A DNA stretch of 62,853 bases, filler included, from Stramenopiles sp. TOSAG23-2 (taxonomy: Eukaryota), in assembly GCA_900128395.1 (NCBI GenBank). It is 8 parts of 8 records of this genome, joined end to end, with 100 filler letters (N's around TTAATTAATTAA, not from the genome) between each part and the next. Parts side by side here need not be neighbours in the genome. Positions count along the whole stretch, not along the records: positions 23,321 to 34,866 come from LT649921.1; 7 more parts are not named here. The stretch is one strand, 5' to 3'. The notes under the pieces are model-generated. The model ran no database searches, was not told the DNA's origin, and was given only the letters and a program-made list of their open reading frames with translations. Shown one piece after another: positions 23,221 through 34,866 of the stretch. The position numbers were made by a program, and so were the translations under genes. Within the stretch, counting starts at the first letter, position 1, and each line of letters starts with the position of its first letter.

Positions 23221-23437
23221 NNNNNNNNNNNNNNNNNNNNNNNNNNNNNNNNNNNNNNNNNNNNTTAATTAATTAANNNNNNNNNNNNNNNNNNNNNNNN
23301 NNNNNNNNNNNNNNNNNNNNAGCATATTACTTTAACACGAGAAGTGTAAAATTATTATAACTTAGATTTTAACCATATATTTATATATTTATATTTTACG
23401 AACGTAAATAATACTGTGTGTGTGTGTAAATTGTTTT

Positions 23438-24421
23438 TTATAGACTCCCTGCAACAACATCAGCTTCTGCCAATTCTTCATTTCTATTTGCTTCTGCCTC
23501 AGCTCGTTCTTTTTGTTCCTCTGGATCATGTTCTAATAAATAATCGAAACGGTTTGCATTGTGAGTATATCCGACTCTATCTTCAAATGCGATGACAACT
23601 TTTCGCAATGATTCTTGATCAATAAATTCATCAAATTGCTCATCAAGTGGATGCCTTATTTTTAAAAGTTCTTTCTTCCTCAATGTCATACTTCGATCCC
23701 AATCTAACCTACGAAACATATCCATGGTTGATCGTAATCGTGTTTTACTATGTCCATGGTCGTAAAGTTTCAATACGTGCAAAACATCGACCAATTCTTT
23801 CTCGCTCCAATGCCCACTGCGATCAACATCCGTCATCGAATGCAATAAGTCTTTTAATACACGCGCTTCAAATGGTTCAAATCGTTTTGGATGAACTCGA
23901 TCCTCCACTGTATGTGGATGCCGCTCGTGTTCAGCAATAATCTCCGATTGCTGCAACCATTGATGTGCACTATGCAATGCATAGTCATGATGGCATTCAG
24001 TATCAAAATCAATATAGCCATCATTATTTTGATCAAAATCTTTCCACACATCATCTATATGAATTGGATGAGGATGTAATTCTGTACCTTTCGTTTCTTC
24101 CATATGTTCATCAACAATCAAATCAACTAAATTAACAAATTCGTCATGTGAAAGTATTCCATCATTGTTTTCATCCGCTTTGTCCAAATTTGCTTTAACA
24201 TGATCCGCAAAATGATGCTCCACAAATTGTTGATGATATGGAGCATGTTTATGCAATAACGATGACTCTCTAGCAGCAAATTCTTTCCCTGCATATCGAT
24301 TATGCGATCTTGCTGCATTGGATGTGTACATTATAAATAACATATTGATGAAGCATATTCTCACGATAAATAATTGTTGCATTGAAGAAGAAAAAATATG
24401 ATTCATTCGTTGTTGTTTCAT
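23438..24421 (-). CDS. His-rich multi-EF-hand protein, probably secretory (calumenin/CREC-like)
   Basis: EF loops DENNDGILSHDEF, DQNNDGYIDFDTE, DVDRSGHWSEKEL, DWDRSMTLRKKEL; hydrophobic N-terminal segment. Confidence 0.8.
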   Translation of the reverse strand: MKQQRMNHIFSSSMQQLFIVRICFINMLFIMYTSNAARSHNRYAGKEFAARESSLLHKHAPYHQQFVEHHFADHVKANLDKADENNDGILSHDEFVNLVDLIVDEHMEETKGTELHPHPIHIDDVWKDFDQNNDGYIDFDTECHHDYALHSAHQWLQQSEIIAEHERHPHTVEDRVHPKRFEPFEARVLKDLLHSMTDVDRSGHWSEKELVDVLHVLKLYDHGHSKTRLRSTMDMFRRLDWDRSMTLRKKELLKIRHPLDEQFDEFIDQESLRKVVIAFEDRVGYTHNANRFDYLLEHDPEEQKERAEAEANRNEELAEADVVAGSL

Positions 24422-24823
24422 GGTATATGTCTTATTAACGTGTATTTAAAAAATAAAAGAAGGAATATATCAGTTGTAACGATCGTATGAAGATATAGAA
24501 CTGGAATTATTAATTTTAATATTGATAAAAATATAGAAAAAATGATTCCTTTGTTCTTTTATTTTTGTGACTTGCAACACTTTACATATTTTAAATATGT
24601 ACAAATGGAGGATATTAAAAAAAATGCAACAAAGTTGCGAGAGCCCTGCTGGGCCTGCCCAGGGCCTGCCTTACGCACTTACGTGCTTACGGGCCTGCTG
24701 GGCCTGCATTATTTTTGGCATTTAAGTATAATATCGTTTAATCGTAGTGTATGTTCTGTCTGTAGGGCTTTTAAGTGATCAAGCTGTATATATAATTTCT
24801 CTTTGACAAAAATGCACAAATGG

Positions 24824-24935
24824 TTGAATCGTAGTGAGTGTTGTGGCGGCGTAAATAAAAAGTGTTGAATCGTAGTGAGTGCTGTGTGGGCGTAAAAAAA
24901 ACGACATCGTAGTGAGTGCTGTGCTGTAGTAAAAT
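24824..24935 (+). repeat. Three degenerate ~40-bp units with core ATCGTAGTGAGTG
   Basis: Core at ~24828, ~24869 and ~24906; flanks also similar to each other. Confidence 0.7.
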
Positions 24936-25169
24936 TTGTGACATTAAGTGCCTGCTGTGTACCTGGGAATTCCTGACATTTGTTTTTTTAGCCCATGCTG
25001 TGTTCATGTATTTTGCAGGTATTTTTTGAATTAAAGTTACCGATACCCTTATGGCATATAGCTTGATAGATTATATTACGTAGCTTAGAATACATTAGTG
25101 ATTACTATAGTAAAGTTTGTTTTAGTAAATATCCTTATTCAATTAGCTCAGCTATCATCTATAACTAAT

Positions 25170-25340
25170 AGCGAGCTAGCTGGGCTAGCTGGGCTAGCTA
25201 GCTACTAGCTTTTTGTGGGCCAAAAAGCCCAGAGAAGATCCGGTCCAGCGTCCAGCGGTCCTCTCTGCACCTCTCTTGGCTATCCAGGCTAGCTAGCTAG
25301 AGCTAGCGCTAGAGCTAGCTAGCTCTATCCCAGCTAGTCG
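25170..25340. repeat. GCTA/AGCT-rich low-complexity palindromic tract
   Basis: Dense gctagctagc and gagctagc runs on both sides of a GC-rich core (gtccagcg twice). Confidence 0.65.
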
Positions 25341-25416
25341 TCTAACGCAAAATAAAAGCTTAGAAATAGGATTACTACTGGTTAAAAGAAGAATTAATAC
25401 ATGTAGGAGGAAATAA

Positions 25417-26553
25417 TTCATTATTACAGGTTTAAATATTGATCAAAATTCATATACTTTTTCATGTATAGTTGAAAATCAAAACGGTGTAAAATCCGTA
25501 GCTAGTGGTAATTCTAATCAGATTAGTAATCAACAACCTGGTGCACCAACGTTTAGTGTGACTGAAGGAGACAAAGAGCTAGTCGTGACTTCTTTGGCAG
25601 CCCCAACCGGTGTTGTAAACCCAAATTTCAAGTGCAAAGCTCTTTTTGGTACGGATGGTAATAAAATAGAACTGATAGCTAGTAATCCTAGTACTACAAT
25701 GACATTTGCCGGCTTAACAAATGGGGAGAGTTACAACATCCAATGTCAATGTGAGAATTCAGCTGGTTACGGCGATTACTCTAATCAAGCTGCAACCAAT
25801 GCAAAAGTCCCATATGGTAAACCTACAAATATAACCACTGCTCCAGTAGTACAACAAGGAGCATCAATTGGTGGTGCTATAACAGTTAGAGTAACAACAC
25901 CACAAGGTAATGGCGCAACGTTGACAGATATCAAATGCATCAGTACACCTGGAAACAAAGTAGGGACTAGGTCCGATACGAATGGATTAACACAGGCAAC
26001 ATATGATATTGTTGTTTCTGGTTTGGATAAGGGTGTTGAAGCTGTTGGTGTGACTATATTTGTTGGCATGTCGGTAGATTATGCATTGCATATGGCTCAT
26101 GGATACCATAGTGCACATGGATCTAATCGTTTCGAGAAAGTGCGCGATGCGTTAACGCATTTGGGAATTAGTATTATTGGTGGTGCCGTTACTACTGCGG
26201 GTGCTGCAGTATTCTTATTTTTTTGCCATATGTACTTGTTCATTCAATTAGGTACTATGATGTTTATGAATACTATCTTGGCTTTGTTCTTCAGTTTGAT
26301 TTTCCTTTCATGTATGTTAATGGTTGGCGGTCCTATGACACACATGTGTGATGTATATGCATGTCTTGGAGCTGTGAAGAGCAAAATATGTGGTTGTGCA
26401 AAGAAGAACAATAAAGTCGGCACAACAATGGTTGTCACACCTAGCTCACCTGTGGAGTTAATAGAGACAGAGAAAGTGTTTATCAAAGAGGATGTAGTAT
26501 CTCCACAGAAGAAAGTTTCAGCTGTCAAGGAGGATGATGATGGTTTCGTTTAA
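25417..26553 (+). CDS. Fibronectin-III repeats joined to the C-terminal transmembrane helices of a Dispatched/Patched-type RND protein; 5'-incomplete, possibly chimeric
   Basis: FN3: ITGLNIDQNSYTFSC, FAGLTNGESYNIQCQCENSAGYG, IVVSGLDK. RND: VEAVGVTIFVGMSVDYALH...RVR-like FEKVRDALTHLGISIIGGAVTT...LFIQLG. The frame is open from 25417 with no ATG start. Confidence 0.6.
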   Translation, partial: FIITGLNIDQNSYTFSCIVENQNGVKSVASGNSNQISNQQPGAPTFSVTEGDKELVVTSLAAPTGVVNPNFKCKALFGTDGNKIELIASNPSTTMTFAGLTNGESYNIQCQCENSAGYGDYSNQAATNAKVPYGKPTNITTAPVVQQGASIGGAITVRVTTPQGNGATLTDIKCISTPGNKVGTRSDTNGLTQATYDIVVSGLDKGVEAVGVTIFVGMSVDYALHMAHGYHSAHGSNRFEKVRDALTHLGISIIGGAVTTAGAAVFLFFCHMYLFIQLGTMMFMNTILALFFSLIFLSCMLMVGGPMTHMCDVYACLGAVKSKICGCAKKNNKVGTTMVVTPSSPVELIETEKVFIKEDVVSPQKKVSAVKEDDDGFV

Positions 26554-26823
26554 GAAGTGTAAAAATTGATGTTCGTTTTAAAATCTAAAAAGTTATAATT
26601 TTATATACCCCTTCATTTTGGTATTCTATATTCTCTTTTCTGAGAATAGAGAGAATATCGACATCCCTAGGTGTGAGATCTGAGATCTTTATCATTAGAT
26701 ATATCATACGACATGGTTAGCATATCATTATGCATTGTACATTATTTGAAGCGAGTGTATTATATGATATCATTTTTAAAAGACGCATTTTCACGAATGA
26801 ATGCAAATATGATGGTTTAGACT

Positions 26824-28251
26824 TTAATCCTCTTCATCATTATCATCCTTTTTCTTATTTCGTCCTCCATTGTTTCCATCTGGCATCCCGGAGCTTATTA
26901 CTTTTGAGCCCTTAACTAAACTTAACTCATAACTTAAATGTTCTAACTTTTTCAAATTGTTCCTTAGCGTAGATATCTTTTTAAACATCCTTGATGGAAC
27001 TTTACCGTTCATGTTAATATGCAATAAGATTTTCGAAACATTCATCACAACTACTCGTGCTTTAGTTACTAATGTTTTATCTCTTCGCGTTGCTGCAGCG
27101 ACGGCAAATCTTCCTACTTCTCCAGTAAAATCTCCTAATCCTCCAAGATATTCATCAAGCGTTAGCTCTGGTATATCTACTCGTATTTCCTTTAAAGATA
27201 AAATTTTATTGGTATCGGTACACTTGAGCCATTCTTCATAGATTCTTCCTTCTGCCCATTCTTCAATCGCATTTGCATATGTACCATTACGTAATGTAGG
27301 CTCTTGTTTTAAATACGTATTAGCAATTTCAATAGCTTTTTGTTTTCCTTCCGCTAATTGTTCTTGTGCTTTTAATATTGATTTTCCACCCCTGTGTAAA
27401 CTGTATACACAATTTTTTCCAAGTTTTTGAATGTCTCGAGATTGCTTGATAACATTTTCACGCAATTGATCATATTCTTTCATTCGATCTTGCAGTCCTT
27501 TAAATTCATCTTTTGAGATTGGAGAATAATTGGTTGGGGAACTAAACTCACTAGCATTATTTTCATTCATCCCTAATGATAATTCATATAAAATATCTTC
27601 CAATCGTTTTTTACAATATTTTACTCCATCGTATTGGCGTCGTATTGGCCCATTCCTGAAATCAAAGTTCATCAATTCTTCCAATATTTCAGTTACCACC
27701 GACTTGCATAATACGACTGATTTAACATCGCCAGCGGTGGCACGTCCGACTGCATATCTTTCTAATTCTTTTGCAAAATGTATAATTCCAATTAAATATT
27801 CCGTATCACTTACATTTAAATTAAAATTACTTGATGATTTCAATGCTTCCAAAGTTATTAAACTTCCATTTCCACTATATAAGAAATTATTTAGTGCAAT
27901 CAAACACACAACGCCAGAAAAACAATCTGTTATTCTATTTTGTTGTCTTAAAATACTATTTTTAATTGGCACAACTAGCAATAATTTTTGGCATAATGAA
28001 ACAATATTACCAATGTCATTACTTTTTAATACCCCCATATGGAATTTTTGCTTGTAAAATTCCATTGTTGGGTTGATTTCATTTGTTAATAAATTAATTT
28101 GTTCTTGCGTTCCACTACGGTCGTTTAATTCTTTTAAGATGGTTTGAATGGTATCTTCCAAGCCACCATCACCATCTTGTAGTGACATCAACTCCGGTGG
28201 TGATGGTGTATACATATTTAATTTTTGGCGTTTGTTTGCCATTTCCGTCAT
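26824..28251 (-). CDS. Translin-TRAX fusion protein (two tandem translin-family domains)
   Basis: Domain 1 is translin-like: EYLIGIIHFAKELERYAVGRATAGD...FRNGPIRRQYDGVKYCKKRLEDILYELSL. Domain 2 is TRAX-like: RENVIKQSRDI...VYSLHR, AIEEWAEG, EYLGGLGDFTGEVGR. Confidence 0.88.
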   Translation of the reverse strand: MTEMANKRQKLNMYTPSPPELMSLQDGDGGLEDTIQTILKELNDRSGTQEQINLLTNEINPTMEFYKQKFHMGVLKSNDIGNIVSLCQKLLLVVPIKNSILRQQNRITDCFSGVVCLIALNNFLYSGNGSLITLEALKSSSNFNLNVSDTEYLIGIIHFAKELERYAVGRATAGDVKSVVLCKSVVTEILEELMNFDFRNGPIRRQYDGVKYCKKRLEDILYELSLGMNENNASEFSSPTNYSPISKDEFKGLQDRMKEYDQLRENVIKQSRDIQKLGKNCVYSLHRGGKSILKAQEQLAEGKQKAIEIANTYLKQEPTLRNGTYANAIEEWAEGRIYEEWLKCTDTNKILSLKEIRVDIPELTLDEYLGGLGDFTGEVGRFAVAAATRRDKTLVTKARVVVMNVSKILLHINMNGKVPSRMFKKISTLRNNLKKLEHLSYELSLVKGSKVISSGMPDGNNGGRNKKKDDNDEED

Positions 28252-28629
28252 ATTAATTTTTTACCTTCCTTACTTTTTGTGTGTCGATATATAAAGTTAG
28301 ACAAATTTCTTTTCTTTTTTATTCTTCAACTCGAATGACGTATATACGTATGATAATAATAATAATAATAATATAGGTTGAACAATTTTCATTTATTTCT
28401 ATATATATTCATTAAATTCAGCACAACAGCTCGAATGAATTATTATAATAATAACCAACAACACACACAGTGAATGGCGTGCAATGTGTGGATGGAGGAA
28501 ATTGTGTTGTGTATATAATAATAATAATAAGCTTTATTACACTATATCTATGAAGTATATATAGTTTTTGGAACATGTTAATAATAAAGAGAAGGCATAT
28601 AAATAAATATATATGTGTAGATAAGAATC

Positions 28630-30459
28630 ATGCAAATTGCATACCATAATAGTAATAATAATAATAACAACAACAAATCTTCATCCAATGAAATTTACAA
28701 AGTTGTTGATAAAAAAATTAAAAATGAAACATCTATAGAAAATTTATTGCATTTGTATAATGTTATTGATTTTCAAAATATCAATAGATGTAATAGTAAA
28801 TTTAAAAATAAATTTACACCCTTTAAAATAAATCAAACAGCATCATCAAATGCAAATATATCGCAACACCCCCTTCCACAAATCAACGCACGTACCAAAG
28901 CATATATAATTGATAATGACCATGATGGGAGAAATGGCCTTATAATATTGCCTCAAGTATTAACAACAATGCAACAAATATATTATTCGTATCACAGTCT
29001 AACCAGCTTATGTGAACCAACAACTGCAAAATCAAATTTGAATAAGAATGAATTTGAACCAAATTTATTTAAAAAATTTGTTGAAAATCATATTGATGAT
29101 GGCAATATTATAAATAAGAAAATGCTTGATTTAAAATGGACTACGCACGGTTATCATTTCAATTGGGATAAGCGAATATACCAAGAACATAATAAAAATG
29201 AATTTCCAACTTCGTTAAATGAATTATCAAAACATATTATTAAATCAACATTTGTTGCAAATAATAATAATAATGATGATGATGATGATTCTATTAATAA
29301 TAAACATTATGGTATACAAGATGATGATAATAATAATAGCAACGTTGACTTCTACCCTGAAGCCAGCATTGTTAATTTTTATTCCAATAAAGGTCGAATG
29401 GGTGGTCATAAAGACGATGTTGAACCAGATCAAACAAGTCCTGTAGTTAGCATTTCATTATGTAATGATGCAATTTTTTTAATTGGTGGTAGTAATAAAC
29501 ATATTGAACCTATACCAATACGATTACGCTCTGGTGATGTGATGATTATGAGTGGTAGTTCACGCAGGGCTGTGCATGGAATTAGTACAATTTTGCAGCA
29601 GACAATTGAACCACATTTATTAAATGGATTGATTGATTATAGTATCTCTCATATAATTAGCAAAAATAATGTCAATCCAAGCTACCAGAAAAGTAGAAAC
29701 GAGGAAAGAAAAGAAAAATTAATGGATTATTTTCAAATTTTAAGAATAAATATTAATGTCAGACAAGTATATGATCGAAGTAGAAAAACAATTGGATTAT
29801 TGAATCAAAGAAAGACAATGATACAACAACAACAAAGAATACTATCACTTGATTTACCAATAAGAAACGTACCATCAACAATTGCAGATCTGAGCAATAG
29901 TACCAAGAACAGAAATATGACATCTACAAGTGATTTACCAGTAAGAAATCTTACAAGTAACTCCTCATCACTTACAACACCCCCTGTTGTTTTTTTAGAT
30001 ATTGATGGAGTTTTAAATTATACAAGATCAAACTCTGAAATTCACTTGGAACCAGAATTAGTACAACGTTTTCGAAAATTACATGATGCAACAAGATTTA
30101 AAATTGTTCTTTCAACTTTTTGGCGTGGTTTTAAAGATTATGTTGAATATATATTGTCCAGAAAAGGATTCCCAAAGGATCAAATCATAGGCACAACTAC
30201 GTTAAATGGTAATCATGCAACCAATACTGCATCCAATCCATTGCGAAAACGTGCGGATGATATTATGGAATATTTAGCTGCAAATCCACATATTAAATCA
30301 TTTGTCATTTTAGATGATCGTATATCTGCATCAAATTCAATTTTAGCAAAACATTTTGTACATACAGTATCAAAGGAAGGGCTTACAGACGAAAAAGCAA
30401 AGGATGCATTGAATATTTTAAACAATCTAACTTGGAATAACACTTCTACAAAATTGTGA
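28630..30459 (+). CDS. ALKBH1: ALKBH1-type AlkB dioxygenase fused to a C-terminal HAD phosphatase (HAD_SAK_2 type)
   Basis: LKWTTHGYHFNWDKRIY, PEASIVNFY...MGGHKD, SISL...AIFLIGG, LRSGDVMIMSG..RRAVHGI, RININVRQV; then VVFLDIDGVLN, KIVLSTFWR, RADDIMEYL...FVILDD. Confidence 0.88.
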   Translation: MQIAYHNSNNNNNNNKSSSNEIYKVVDKKIKNETSIENLLHLYNVIDFQNINRCNSKFKNKFTPFKINQTASSNANISQHPLPQINARTKAYIIDNDHDGRNGLIILPQVLTTMQQIYYSYHSLTSLCEPTTAKSNLNKNEFEPNLFKKFVENHIDDGNIINKKMLDLKWTTHGYHFNWDKRIYQEHNKNEFPTSLNELSKHIIKSTFVANNNNNDDDDDSINNKHYGIQDDDNNNSNVDFYPEASIVNFYSNKGRMGGHKDDVEPDQTSPVVSISLCNDAIFLIGGSNKHIEPIPIRLRSGDVMIMSGSSRRAVHGISTILQQTIEPHLLNGLIDYSISHIISKNNVNPSYQKSRNEERKEKLMDYFQILRININVRQVYDRSRKTIGLLNQRKTMIQQQQRILSLDLPIRNVPSTIADLSNSTKNRNMTSTSDLPVRNLTSNSSSLTTPPVVFLDIDGVLNYTRSNSEIHLEPELVQRFRKLHDATRFKIVLSTFWRGFKDYVEYILSRKGFPKDQIIGTTTLNGNHATNTASNPLRKRADDIMEYLAANPHIKSFVILDDRISASNSILAKHFVHTVSKEGLTDEKAKDALNILNNLTWNNTSTKL

Positions 30460-30783
30460 TGAAGAATTAGTAGAATTAAGGTGTTTATTAATATCGAAAT
30501 ACCATTGTATATAGTATATATAAAACTTAGTTAGTATAGTACCTGGTATAAAAAATAAATAATAAAATAATAATAAAATAATAATAAATAGACCAACAAC
30601 AACAAATGTCGGAGAATTTTGAATTTCATTATACACATATTTCAATTTTATTTTCAGTAACATCTCTACATATACATAGTGTCTCAAAGATAATTTTTTT
30701 CCACATGTAGTTTTAATCCCTTAGCAACCCAAAATAATTGCAAACATTATCATATATATATACATATATACATATACATATAA

Positions 30784-32232
30784 ATGGAACAGTCGGCAAA
30801 CATGAATAGTGATATGAATAACTATAATAATAATAATAATGGCTATAATGAAAATATTGTAGAAAAGAAAATGTTGGTCAATAATAACCACACAACGACG
30901 ACCATTGATAGCAATAACAACAACAGCAACAATACGATCAATAGTAGCATATCGACTATTCGTGTGCCAGTTCATGTAGAGATATGCCAAAAACCAAGTT
31001 CATCGAAAAGTGCAGAGACAATTAAAAAAGCTGTATATGCCTTTTTACAAGATCCAGATGGTATTTTTAACAATGGTCCTATTTTGAATTTTCGTGAAGG
31101 GAATGATATACTTGCTAGAAACGTACAATCTATCAACGTATCTGATATAGACTATGAACAACATAGTGCTGGTGTCCCTGTATGGAAAGCAGATATTAAA
31201 TTGTATGTATACCGTATAAACATCGATGGCGCGAGTGAAGAATACACCGATGAAAGCGAAGAAAGTGTTAGTTCATGTTCACAATGGGTTTTGCCAGCAA
31301 AAGAATTTCATGGGTTATGGGAAAATTTAATTTATGATATTGATATAAAACAATCATTATTACAATATTGTTCCACCGCATTGTTATTTTCAGATCAATC
31401 CGTCAATACAAACATTATTTCATGGAATCGCGTTGTCTTGTTACATGGACCACCTGGTACCGGAAAAACTAGCCTTTGTAAAGCATTAGCACATAAAATT
31501 TCCATACGTTTATCCGATCGTTACCCAAATTCATTGTTATTAGAAATCAATGCACATTCACTTTTTAGTAAATGGTTTTCAGAAAGTGGTAAATTAGTTA
31601 TGAAATTGTTTCAACATATAAATGATTTAGTAGATGATGAGCAAGCATTAGTATGTGTATTGATAGATGAGGTAGAAAGTTTGACTGCTGCGCGTACTGG
31701 TGCAATGTCCGGCTCGGAACCATCCGATGCGATTCGTGTTGTCAATGCACTGTTAACGCAAATCGACCAATTAAAAGAACGAGAAAATGTACTTATATTG
31801 ACAACATCAAATATAAGCGAAGCAATAGATTTAGCATTTGTTGATCGTGCTGATATTAAACAATACATTGGTTTACCAAATGCACAAGCACGTTATGATA
31901 TTTTAGTTTCTTGTGTCAATGAATTGACACGTGTTGGTATTATAAATGGTCAACAATTTTTACGAACATCATCAAACCGTATTACAAATCCAACATCATT
32001 GGAAAACTTATTAATGCAAGTTGCGACATTTGCAGTTGGTTTGTCAGGTAGAAGTTTACGTAAAATACCATTTCAAGCACATGCTTTTTTTTGTAATGGT
32101 GCAAGTAGTATCGATTTACAAACGTATTTAAATGCATTGATGTTAGCTGTGAAAAAAGAATTAAAATCAAGAGTAGATTTATCTAAGAAAGGTGATACAA
32201 GTAGTAGTGGTAGTGTTAATGATAAGAAGTGA
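30784..32232 (+). CDS. TRIP13: PCH2/TRIP13 AAA+ ATPase
   Basis: QWVLPAKEFHGLWENLIYD, NRVVLLHGPPGTGKTSLCKALA, EINAHSLFSKWFSESGKLV, LIDEVESL, SEPSDAIRVVNALLTQID, DLAFVDRADIK, GLSGRSLRKIPF. Confidence 0.97.
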   Translation: MEQSANMNSDMNNYNNNNNGYNENIVEKKMLVNNNHTTTTIDSNNNNSNNTINSSISTIRVPVHVEICQKPSSSKSAETIKKAVYAFLQDPDGIFNNGPILNFREGNDILARNVQSINVSDIDYEQHSAGVPVWKADIKLYVYRINIDGASEEYTDESEESVSSCSQWVLPAKEFHGLWENLIYDIDIKQSLLQYCSTALLFSDQSVNTNIISWNRVVLLHGPPGTGKTSLCKALAHKISIRLSDRYPNSLLLEINAHSLFSKWFSESGKLVMKLFQHINDLVDDEQALVCVLIDEVESLTAARTGAMSGSEPSDAIRVVNALLTQIDQLKERENVLILTTSNISEAIDLAFVDRADIKQYIGLPNAQARYDILVSCVNELTRVGIINGQQFLRTSSNRITNPTSLENLLMQVATFAVGLSGRSLRKIPFQAHAFFCNGASSIDLQTYLNALMLAVKKELKSRVDLSKKGDTSSSGSVNDKK

Positions 32233-32537
32233 AAAGGTGAACACACACACACAACAACAAAAAAAATTTTTGAATTTTGAAGAGCGAGGGATTTTATAGA
32301 ATAGAGTATTTACAAGATTTAAAGATTTTTAATATTATTATACCATACACATATCACTATATTAATACATAATTTTATAAACTTGAAAAATAATATCATA
32401 TATACTCTACACTTCGAATCTCTCGTGTATACACATATACTTATATATATTTAAATTTAACATTTCTCTTTTTATCCCAATTATACATATATATACATGC
32501 GCCGGGCAATAGACATCTTTTTAAATAATTATCTGTT

Positions 32538-33155
32538 TTATTTACGTAATCTTAATAACATACCTTTGTTTGCTTTAATTTTTTTCTGTAATTGCATCAT
32601 ACCATATAATAAACCTTCAGCAGTTGGTGGGCAACCAGGTACATATATATCAACTGGTACTACACGGTCACAACCACGTACAACGGAATATGAATAATGA
32701 TAATATCCACCACCATTTGCACAACTCCCCATAGAAATTACCCAACGTGGCTCGGGCATTTGGTCGTAAACTTTACGCAATGCAGGTGCCATTTTATTTG
32801 TCAATGTTCCAGCTACAATCATTACATCTGATTGCCTTGGACTTGCACGAAAAACTATACCAAAACGTTCCATATCATAACGTGCTGCTGCTGCATGCAT
32901 CATTTCTACTGCACAACATGCTAAACCAAACGTCATAGGCCACATAGAACCACGTCGTGCCCAATTTACTAAATCATCCAAACCGGATACGACAAATTCT
33001 GCACCGTTCTTTCCACGTTCCAACACACTGTCTACACTGGAACCACCTACTGCCATTTGTCTACTTCCACCAAATTTAATAGCGTTCGAAAGACTATTTT
33101 TGCTATTACGTGGTACTTTCGTACGTTTAATATTACTAATAATTTGTCTCAACAT
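32538..33155 (-). CDS. NDUFS7: Complex I PSST/NDUFS7 (NuoB) subunit, nucleus-encoded with mitochondrial presequence
   Basis: [16 protein letters not shown]...[16 protein letters not shown]...[40 protein letters not shown]; basic, acid-free N-terminus. Confidence 0.98.
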
Positions 33156-33709
33156 AATGGTTATTTATTTATTAATTGATACGTATATGTATGTATTGGC
33201 AAATAAAAATACGATTATGATATGACACTTATTATATATGAAATATATGTAATATACTATATATATACTATATATATATATATCAAATGCAATGAATGAA
33301 ATATCAATGATATCTACTATTATCTTCCTTCCATTTGCAATAAACAGTCATGATCATTTATTCATTTTCATTTATTATTTTGTGATGGAACATAACTGGA
33401 CTTGTGTGGTGATTCCCCTGTACTATTTCGATGCTAAAATTGAGCAGATCTACCCTGCTGTTGCCTGCTCCTTCAGCTCAGCAAAGCAATTTATGTACGT
33501 ATTTTGATAGGTTAAGACGGATCTTTAGAATAACAATTCAGGTGTATTTTGATAGGTTAAGATGGATCATTACCTGGTAGTATATCAAATTTATGTATAT
33601 AAGTTGATACTTCAAAAAAAAAAATCCGAAATATAATTTCAAACTGCATTTACATTTTTACTACTCTGAAAATACACATAAAATATATTATTAAACAAAA
33701 CGTATAAAT

Positions 33710-34866
33710 TCACGACAATGCTTTTCCAATATTACCACTACTAGTATCCTTCTTACGTTTATATGTATAACCTAAAAAGTCTGTTTCTTTGCTCAAACCA
33801 ACTTTTCTACCACCTTGCAATGGTGTATGGCGAAAATCATCAAAATTTGATGTTAATTCTTTCACATGCCTATTGAATAATGGATCACTCCTTTTCATTT
33901 TACTCAAGGTATCAATCAATTCACCAACTCGTATACTACTTGTCGTTAAATAAGGTGCCTTCATTGAACGTACTTTATCCCAATCAAAGCTGTTCAACCA
34001 TGGATGATTTTTCATATCTTTTATACCATTTCCATAGCACAAACGATTTTCACGATCGCAAATAAGTTGACTAACGAAATCAATAGATTCTTTACTTAAA
34101 TGTGACAATGATTCTTCTGGAAATTTTAATATTTTTTTCCAATTCATAATTTTCCTACATGTATCCATGGGTTGATCGCTATAAAATAGCGGGTATCCAA
34201 CCAGGCATTCGAAAAAAATAACACCTAATGACCACCAATCGCATTCCGATCCATAGCCTTCCCCGCCTAATACTTCTGGTGCAATGTAATCTGGCGTTCC
34301 AACGGTTGAATATAATTGATTGCGTGCTCTATGCTTCGCTTTGCTACCTTTTATATTATTATTATTGTTACTATTGCCAGATGATGATTTTTTCATCATG
34401 AAATTTGGATCGTTCGTATTGACAGTTTGATGTTTCTTTGCTAAACCTAAATCAGTCAATTTTAAATGGCCATGATGATCGATTAGTATATTATCGGGCT
34501 TTAAATCACGATGTACATAACCTAAATCATGTACGCATTGCACAGCCAATGATGCTTCGACTGCATAAAATTTAACAGCATTTTCACTTAAAATATCTTC
34601 TTTCATTAATAACGACATTAAATCTCCACCTGCCATAAATTCCATAGCAAGATACAAATTAATATCATCTTTGAATGAATATTGCAATTTAACAAGCCAA
34701 CTCGTATTGGCCTCTGCTAATATATTTTGCTCTGCTCGTATATGTTCAATTTGATTTTTCATTTTCATAGCTTCCATAACCATAGCTTTTAACGCAAATA
34801 ATTCTCCAGTTTTTTTCTCCCGTACTAAACGTACTTCCCCAAATGCACCTTTTCCAACAACTGCTA
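33710..34866 (-). CDS. NDR/STK38-family AGC kinase, 5'-truncated at the scaffold end
   Basis: The frame extends upstream of the listed ORF to [24 protein letters not shown], insert before [14 protein letters not shown], hydrophobic motif FLGYTYKR. Confidence 0.93.

Follow-up and report, generated by a model that had tools for sequence, protein, structure and literature searches.

The DNA analysed here, hereafter the window, is a stretch of 62,853 nucleotides from Stramenopiles sp. TOSAG23-2 (assembly GCA_900128395.1) in which eight parts are joined by filler letters; the part of interest, positions 23,321 to 34,866, comes from LT649921.1. At 26824..28251 on the (-) strand it carries P0001, a single, uninterrupted open reading frame (ORF) of 475 aa plus stop that begins with an ATG and is preceded by an in-frame TAA 12 nt 5' of this start codon. 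From the ORF listing and the Pfam family PF01997, its product was annotated as a single-chain translin-TRAX (C3PO-like) protein, that is a chain in which both partners of the nuclease C3PO are found one after the other. An earlier reading made from the DNA alone, referred to below as the sequence-only reading, had proposed such a fusion. The frame that it described was recovered as stated, and the motifs that it quoted, namely CFSGVVCL, GIIHFAKEL, IRRQYDGVKY (residues 203-212), EEWAE (330-334) and GDFTGE (373-378), were all found in the protein.

The whole protein matched PF01997 (Translin) with 123.8 bits in two stretches, for a cut-off of 25.9. The scan for two matches that had been suggested together with the original proposal was also carried out on the separated halves, and each of them passed this cut-off alone, with 53.0 bits for residues 1-239 and 77.5 bits for residues 240-475. 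The N and C halves share 32% identity over 79 residues (E 2e-7), and at such a low level of identity the repeat must be old and not recent. In a HMMER search by sequence against all solved structures, eukaryotic TRAX was absent from the matches of the N half, which included mouse, human and fly translins (E 1.7e-11 to 1.6e-10). For the C half, human TRAX came first (3pja_J, E 1.8e-5), together with fly TRAX and NEQ131, and translins appeared at E 0.16 or worse. In the same way, all nine translin sequences that were compared with a family profile of 105 sequences matched it at positions 27-230 only, in one stretch each and with up to 76.9 bits, and all eight TRAX, AfTRAX and NEQ131 sequences matched at positions 238-440 only, again in one stretch each and with up to 68 bits. 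These profile scores, through which the two halves are linked to the canonical proteins, show that the N half is translin-type and the C half TRAX-type.

The translin-type domain, predicted to be non-catalytic, covers residues about 29-226 (27574..28167; this and all the following features lie on the (-) strand), as delimited by its PF01997 match of 53 bits and by the translin structures. It contains at residues 196-212 (27616..27666) a translin-type C-terminal motif, FDFRNGPIRRQYDGVKY, that aligns to LKNDSLRKRYDGLKY in mouse translin. The basic signature claimed for the N repeat belongs here, since HMMER puts IRRQYDGVKY opposite LRKRYDGLKY of mouse translin. A short structured linker follows at residues 227-246 (27514..27573), for which AlphaFold2 gives a predicted local distance difference test score (pLDDT) of 91-94 and a helix at 230-236. 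The TRAX-type domain, predicted to be catalytic, extends over residues 247-453 (26893..27513), as judged from the 77.5 bits against PF01997 and the match to human TRAX 3pja_J. The four acidic residues of TRAX are present in this C repeat, as had been claimed. EEWAE at 330-334 (27250..27264) aligns to QEYVE of human TRAX and would supply E331 and E334 as metal-binding carboxylates 1 and 2; GDFTGE aligns to ADLTGE, its last five residues, DFTGE at 374-378 (27118..27132), facing DLTGE and providing D374 and E378 as carboxylates 3 and 4. The cations of NeC3PO are bound by Glu82, Glu85, Asp117 and Glu121, the equivalents of this tetrad (PMC5100593). E123, E126 and D204 of fly TRAX likewise match catalytic positions of the C half, as given in the Drosophila study (PMC6144819). 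The chain ends with a Lys/Asp/Glu-rich tail at residues 454-475 (26827..26892), predicted at low confidence (pLDDT 46-54) and without secondary structure. At the other end, in front of the N domain, a conserved peptide, TPSPP, is located at residues 15-19 (28195..28209) and corresponds to the family pattern [LMI]-P-x-x-P in the alignment of 105 sequences. P16 is a proline in 83 of the 105 aligned sequences and P19 in 93, the remaining rows being gapped at that position (93/93 ungapped).

AlphaFold2 modelling with the family alignment gave for P0001 a mean pLDDT of 91.0 and a predicted template modelling score (pTM) of 0.85, with two helical domains and a linker above 90. The member from the choanoflagellate Didymoeca costata, P0021, was modelled with a pLDDT of 93.5 and a pTM of 0.88. 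An all-helical translin fold is predicted for each half. Residues 30-237 of the P0001 model superpose on human translin 3qb5_C (Z 18.4, root mean square deviation (rmsd) 2.2, 197 residues) and residues 243-458 on human TRAX 3pja_J (Z 21.4, rmsd 2.3, 209 residues), and Foldseek agrees. Moreover, the whole-chain pTM values obtained in two members suggest that the two domains are held in a fixed arrangement.

Residue conservation was counted over the 177 fusions that are near-complete, among them P0001 and its copy P0002. Their C halves keep E331 in 176 cases, E334 in 175, D374 in 175 and E378 in all 177. The loss of the acidic catalytic set from the N repeat, as read from the single sequence, proved to be a family-wide substitution of the carboxylate columns: D, E or K occupies the column of E331, R (63), E (26) or A (24) that of E334, G (103), S (23) or T (12) that of D374, and D (78) or E (69) that of E378. 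The N halves keep R199 (171), N200 (176), R204 (174), D208 (175), K211 (174) and Y212 (170), and the translin-type motif FDFRNGxxRRxYDGxKY is gone from the C halves. In these proteins the linker, taken as the stretch between the profile matches, ranges from -5 to 82 residues, with a median of 13.

The fusion is not peculiar to this organism. A collection of 5.8 billion proteins was searched; 289 of the 8000 scored candidates of 261-832 aa matched, and in all 120 of the best that were listed an N-type region is followed by a C-type region, some of these homologues being truncated. Among 1.84 billion cluster representatives searched with HMMER, 3667 belong to the family at E <= 1e-3 and 642 at E <= 1e-30. 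When 375 proteins were sorted with the half-profiles, 260 were N-type then C-type, and 177 are near-complete. The sequence-only reading could not tell whether the fusion was already catalogued in other protists, and it turned out to be present in several distant groups of them. Among choanoflagellates, it was found in Stephanoeca diplocostata, Didymoeca costata and Acanthoeca spectabilis; among ochrophytes, in the raphidophyte Chattonella subsalsa, the diatoms Coscinodiscus wailesii and Nitzschia sp., Triparma verrucosa and a chrysophyte single-cell genome; and among euglenozoans, in the diplonemid Lacrimia lanifica and the euglenid Eutreptiella gymnastica. It is not shown to be a stramenopile trait, as it occurs well outside the ochrophytes. 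In addition, ORFs flagged 'complete' in the MMETSP and EukProt transcriptomes contain the fusion. This single-chain translin-TRAX protein is therefore real, widely conserved and present in RNA libraries.

The chance that two adjacent genes were merged by a misjoin or by an artefact of the gene model is negligible. The layout is the same in the 120 listed homologues, which come from many sources. Three metagenome contigs, L082, L083 and L084, whose proteins are 77-82% identical to the C-type protein P0261, encode full fusions as single open frames (490-564 residues). Contigs from independent runs are at least 99% identical over the junction of P0001. An 844-nt contig of the RNA-library (metatranscriptome) run X2 spans 27038-27878, linker included, without gap or joint, and a contig of run X1, the RNA status of which is only guessed, likewise spans the linker. 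Separate genes or a misjoin near the linker, which had been named in advance as contrary to a fusion, were not found in these data, the X2 contig bridging the linker without a joint. The oligo-dT contig X14 (27511-27709) was considered as another bridge over the linker and was rejected because it enters the C half by only ~3 nt. Contig cover is absent at 26636-26719 and beyond 28316, and nothing is inferred from these gaps.

Another possibility is that the cell mostly makes two proteins from this gene, through an internal start or cleavage of the linker, and that the product is functionally an ordinary two-subunit C3PO. The wide range of linker lengths would be compatible with it. Moreover, the contig L081, 99% identical to P0261, carries a lone C-type ORF of 228 aa (L081:217-900) with 216 nt of non-coding-looking sequence upstream before the contig ends, and the Met start of this ORF aligns with a Met in the linker of its fused relatives. 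Nevertheless, the linker of P0001 is short and confidently structured (pLDDT >90), the frame is open over the junction in the 177 near-complete members, the two halves co-diverge, and the runs that cover the linker show neither a joint nor a contig end there. A two-protein product is accordingly regarded as improbable. The lone ORF of L081 could correspond to a recent fission, to an extra copy or to a gene whose upstream exon lies past the contig end. On the N side, proteins resembling P0130 that consist of the N domain only were considered as split genes and rejected: they are truncated models in which the N domain and the beginning of the C domain are followed by an apparent intron read-through. 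The models of P0130, P0404 and P0408, which belong to one lineage, end just past SLHR, a motif of the C domain, and go on with unrelated residues; their sequences suggest an intron at this point in these fusion genes.

The known C3PO complexes are built from the same parts. The human C3PO crystal has a 6:2 ratio. In animal C3PO (human 3PJA and 3QB5; Drosophila 3AXJ and 3RIU), the two domain types, their roles, the four acidic residues of the TRAX part and the seven-helix fold are those of the fusion. The building unit of animal C3PO is a translin-TRAX pair, which the two domains of the fusion may form as well; in the fly, this heterodimer buries 4,441 Å² per molecule, as stated in the Drosophila study (PMC6144819). 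The same text describes a cryo-electron microscopy model in which four TRAX-translin heterodimers form the full-length Drosophila C3PO, with a 4:4 ratio, and mentions that 2:6 and 3:5 ratios have also been proposed and that TRAX misfolds without translin (PMC6144819). Unlike these separate subunits, the fusion holds both domains in one chain, with the translin-type domain first and a linker of ~20 residues, and it has in addition the conserved [LMI]PxxP peptide before the N domain. Sequence identity between the fusion and the solved chains is only 16-24%. As the two domains belong to one chain, the ratio is fixed at 1:1 and cannot drift to 6:2, 2:6 or 3:5. The claim of a third C3PO architecture did not survive this comparison, since the fly complex has already been reported as 4:4 (PMC6144819). 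Given that description, the fusion would hard-wire the fly heterodimer unit, which makes a four-chain 4:4 barrel plausible, yet not a new architecture.

With regard to archaea, the C domain of the fusion superposes on the subunits of the homo-octamers NEQ131 of Nanoarchaeum equitans (5JR9, 5JRC, 5JRE) and AfTRAX of Archaeoglobus fulgidus (3ZC0, 3ZC1) with Z values of 19-19.6 and an rmsd of 1.8-2.0. The four cation-binding residues of NeC3PO (PMC5100593) are kept in this domain. The archaeal enzymes are made of one kind of subunit, all copies of which are catalytic, whereas half of the domains of the fusion would be catalytically dead.

The ORF probably encodes a natural single-chain C3PO nuclease. 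Its chain comprises a translin-fold N domain that has the C-terminal motif and has lost the carboxylates, a linker of about 20 residues, and a TRAX-fold C domain with the full tetrad. Within each chain, the N and C domains may be in contact like a translin-TRAX pair built into one molecule, an arrangement that fixes the 1:1 ratio and would spare TRAX its dependence, for folding, on a translin produced separately. Several chains, most simply four, would then form an eight-domain hollow barrel like that of the fly 4:4 C3PO, and the four TRAX-type sites would cut RNA inside its cavity.

Self-association was addressed by modelling two copies with ESMFold2, in which the alignment was not used. The two-copy score was 0.35, the best of 3 controls being at 0.00, and the score passed the mark set for this test, which 21 of 30 solved one-chain pairs and none of 23 solved single chains reach. 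For eukaryotes, the mark is reached by 17 of 29 pairs, but by 1 of 7 that are without an older solved relative, and by none of 30 single chains. The runs agreed in at least 82% of the contacts, with a partner pLDDT of at least 79. The predicted interface places the last helix of the C domain of one chain against the N domain of the other chain and involves residues 14-22 as well, a segment that includes the conserved [LMI]PxxP peptide.

A second group of eukaryotic proteins has to be considered for the origin of the two halves. A search for short relatives (30-221 aa) found complete proteins of 200-220 aa encoded on megabase contigs (P0264-P0301, loci L001-L080), and it is to these single-domain proteins that both halves of the fusion are most closely related in sequence. 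They occur in oomycetes (Saprolegnia P0271, Achlya P0270, Albugo P0291, Hyaloperonospora and Phytophthora), in the deep-branching stramenopile Platysulcus tardus (P0265) and in green algae (Coccomyxa P0277, Helicosporidium P0278, Micromonas, Sanguina and Asterochloris). For instance, P0271 is 48% identical to the N half of the window protein over 98 aa and 37% to its C half over 221 aa. They score high on both half-profiles, with 150-250 bits for the C profile and 150-195 bits for the N profile; on the latter, the C half of a fusion stays at about 50-100 bits. In 19 of 19 of them, the catalytic tetrad occurs together with the translin-type motif. They thus share the tetrad with the C half of the fusion and FDFRNG..YD.LKY with its N half; one domain of ~200-220 aa holds both motif sets, whereas the fusion splits the sets over two domains. 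A profile of these proteins matched NEQ131 best (69.5 bits), followed by human TRAX via its N-terminal half (65.1) and human translin via its C-terminal half (61.4). Relatives with up to 52% identity were also found in DPANN archaea (Woesearchaeota, Nanoarchaeota) and in Patescibacteria, 118 of 194 pattern matches being confirmed. Like the archaeal enzyme, these eukaryotic proteins are probably homo-oligomers. They look like an archaeal type of C3PO that oomycetes and green algae have kept.

A tree was built with IQ-TREE from 79 rows. Hand selection among the 177 fusions supplied 24 N and 24 C halves, and the other rows were 13 of the single-domain proteins and 18 sequences from prokaryotes. 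The searches for homologues covered proteins of 261-832 aa (best 120 listed), 30-221 aa and, with words of the N half only, 131-419 aa. The N-half search at 131-419 aa gave 21 matches, all of them fusion fragments or fusion-type and none a canonical translin or TRAX, and the best 150 of the cluster-representative search were fusion-family proteins only. In the tree, the N halves form one clade (100/99), as do the C halves (100/99), with the prokaryotes on one side (99/98). A basal and weakly resolved grade, which adjoins the DPANN and Patescibacteria homologues, is made up of the single-domain eukaryotic proteins. Of 21 bipartitions, 12 are common to the N and C subtrees, compared with 0.22 on average and 3 at most in 1000 label shuffles, and euglenozoan members are the first to branch in both subtrees. 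Both halves of the window protein are placed near choanoflagellate and other marine sequences. The existence of separate N and C clades with mirrored subtrees implies that the duplication predates the split of the lineages that bear the fusion, and that the halves have travelled together since. A recent internal duplication of a TRAX-like gene, the other outcome named beforehand as contrary to the fusion of two distinct partners, was not observed either, the halves falling into two separate old clades. The family is old, shared by choanoflagellates, ochrophytes and euglenozoans, and its halves would derive from one duplication of a single-domain, archaeal-type enzyme with both motif sets.

How this duplication relates to canonical translin and TRAX can be viewed in two ways. 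On the one hand, a gene of the archaeal type with both motif sets may have been internally duplicated on a separate occasion, independently of the duplication behind animal, fungal and plant translin and TRAX. The protein and its likely chemistry would then be unchanged, but the N half would only resemble translin, each having retained the ancestral C-terminal motif and lost its carboxylates in parallel. The single-domain proteins speak for such an origin, through the 19 of 19 that retain both motif sets, their high scores on both half-profiles and the emergence of the N and C clades from their grade; the tree in which N and C are held together as one clade is not rejected (log-likelihood difference 3.7, P value of 0.40 in the approximately unbiased test). 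The translin motif is, moreover, partly present in prokaryotic homologues, and for this reason it is ancestral and not a novelty of translin. Against it, translin chains match the N half over nearly the full length of the chains (chain residues 14-227, 76.9 bits) and do not match the C half at E 0.01, the reverse being true for TRAX, whereas the profile of the single-domain proteins reaches translin only via its C-terminal half, with 61.4 bits. An independent duplication would also require two parallel splits of the same functions, and the support of the tree backbone is weak (76-89), so that the tree does not favour it either. This scenario is consequently held to be possible but rather unlikely.

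On the other hand, the fused gene could be the ancestral eukaryotic state: translin and TRAX would have been born as the halves of a tandem-duplicated archaeal-type C3PO with both motif sets, and the separate genes would have arisen by later fission. Oomycetes and green algae would then retain the both-motif form as a single domain, and fission would have taken place in animals, fungi and plants. The presence of the fusion in three distant supergroups, the single N clade and single C clade with mirrored subtrees, the first branching of euglenozoans in both subtrees, and the occurrence of fused and unfused forms among relatives that are 77-99% identical all fit such a history. As a general account of the origin of the pair, it is put forward as a speculation with the odds clearly against it. 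Choanoflagellates are the closest relatives of animals. Since the fusion is present in them, fusion and fission can be directly distinguished by a tree.

Several points weigh against the reading of P0001 as a natural single-chain C3PO. The orthology of its halves to canonical translin and TRAX is putative, as it is drawn from profile scores and not from the 79-row tree, which is composed of fusion halves, single-domain proteins and prokaryotic sequences. Scores of 150-250 bits tie both halves to the single-domain proteins that combine the two motif sets, far above the 77 and 68 bits that canonical translin and TRAX reach on the family profile. The intramolecular translin-TRAX pairing is deduced from pTM. 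The two-copy pass may reflect memory of the model because C3PO structures have already been solved, and it is silent on four copies. Nuclease activity and cellular substrates are predicted for all family members. RNA-library contigs can hold DNA, hence a single transcript is not provable from them. Finally, the lone C-type ORF of L081 indicates that the fused state is not universal.

The window is AT-rich, with a GC content of 24-37% per 2-kb step, and gene-dense, with 24 ORFs of at least 250 aa; it is a piece of a compact eukaryotic genome. A divergent neighbour encoding 609 aa lies at 28630-30459 (+) and begins 378 bp upstream of the fusion gene. This protein carries an AlkB-like 2OG-Fe(II) oxygenase domain (PF13532, 107 bits) and PF18143 (94.6 bits), the 'HAD domain in Swiss Army Knife RNA repair proteins'. 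The head-to-head placing of an RNA-repair-type gene and an RNA nuclease gene may be due to chance. On the other side, a convergent ORF of 331 aa at 25558-26553 (+) was without a match in Pfam at E <= 1e-5. It is overlain by a contig from oligo-dT RNA that departs from the window at 26558 with 39 loose letters, which may reflect either splicing or a chimeric contig. Further along, an ordinary eukaryotic gene at 30784-32232 (+) encodes a TRIP13/Pch2-type AAA+ ATPase with its TRIP13_N, AAA and TRIP13 lid domains; in an Atlas search, this protein matched clusters of broad eukaryotic composition only.

Database entries label the fusion proteins generically, for example 'Translin' or 'predicted translin family RNA/ssDNA-binding protein'. 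Full-text literature searches, the scope of which did not include the 2012 work of Gupta, Kale and Kumar (J Mol Evol 75:155-167), yielded no paper on a natural translin-TRAX fusion. That work, the one study devoted to the evolution of the superfamily, is said to deal with proteins of unicellular eukaryotes that have both translin and TRAX motifs, and it may cover the single-domain forms or even the fusion. The fusion thus seems never to have been described in print, though databases contain it.

The main value of the fusion concerns the assembly of C3PO and the origin of the translin/TRAX pair. The subunit ratio of C3PO is contested, and a family in which a 1:1 ratio is hard-wired constitutes independent evolutionary evidence for the heterodimer as the functional unit. 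The fusion is also ready single-chain material for structural and enzymatic work, TRAX being hard to make without translin. Together with the single-domain proteins that hold both motif sets, it provides a series that leads from a homo-oligomeric archaeal nuclease to a hetero-oligomer composed of a catalytic part and a scaffold.

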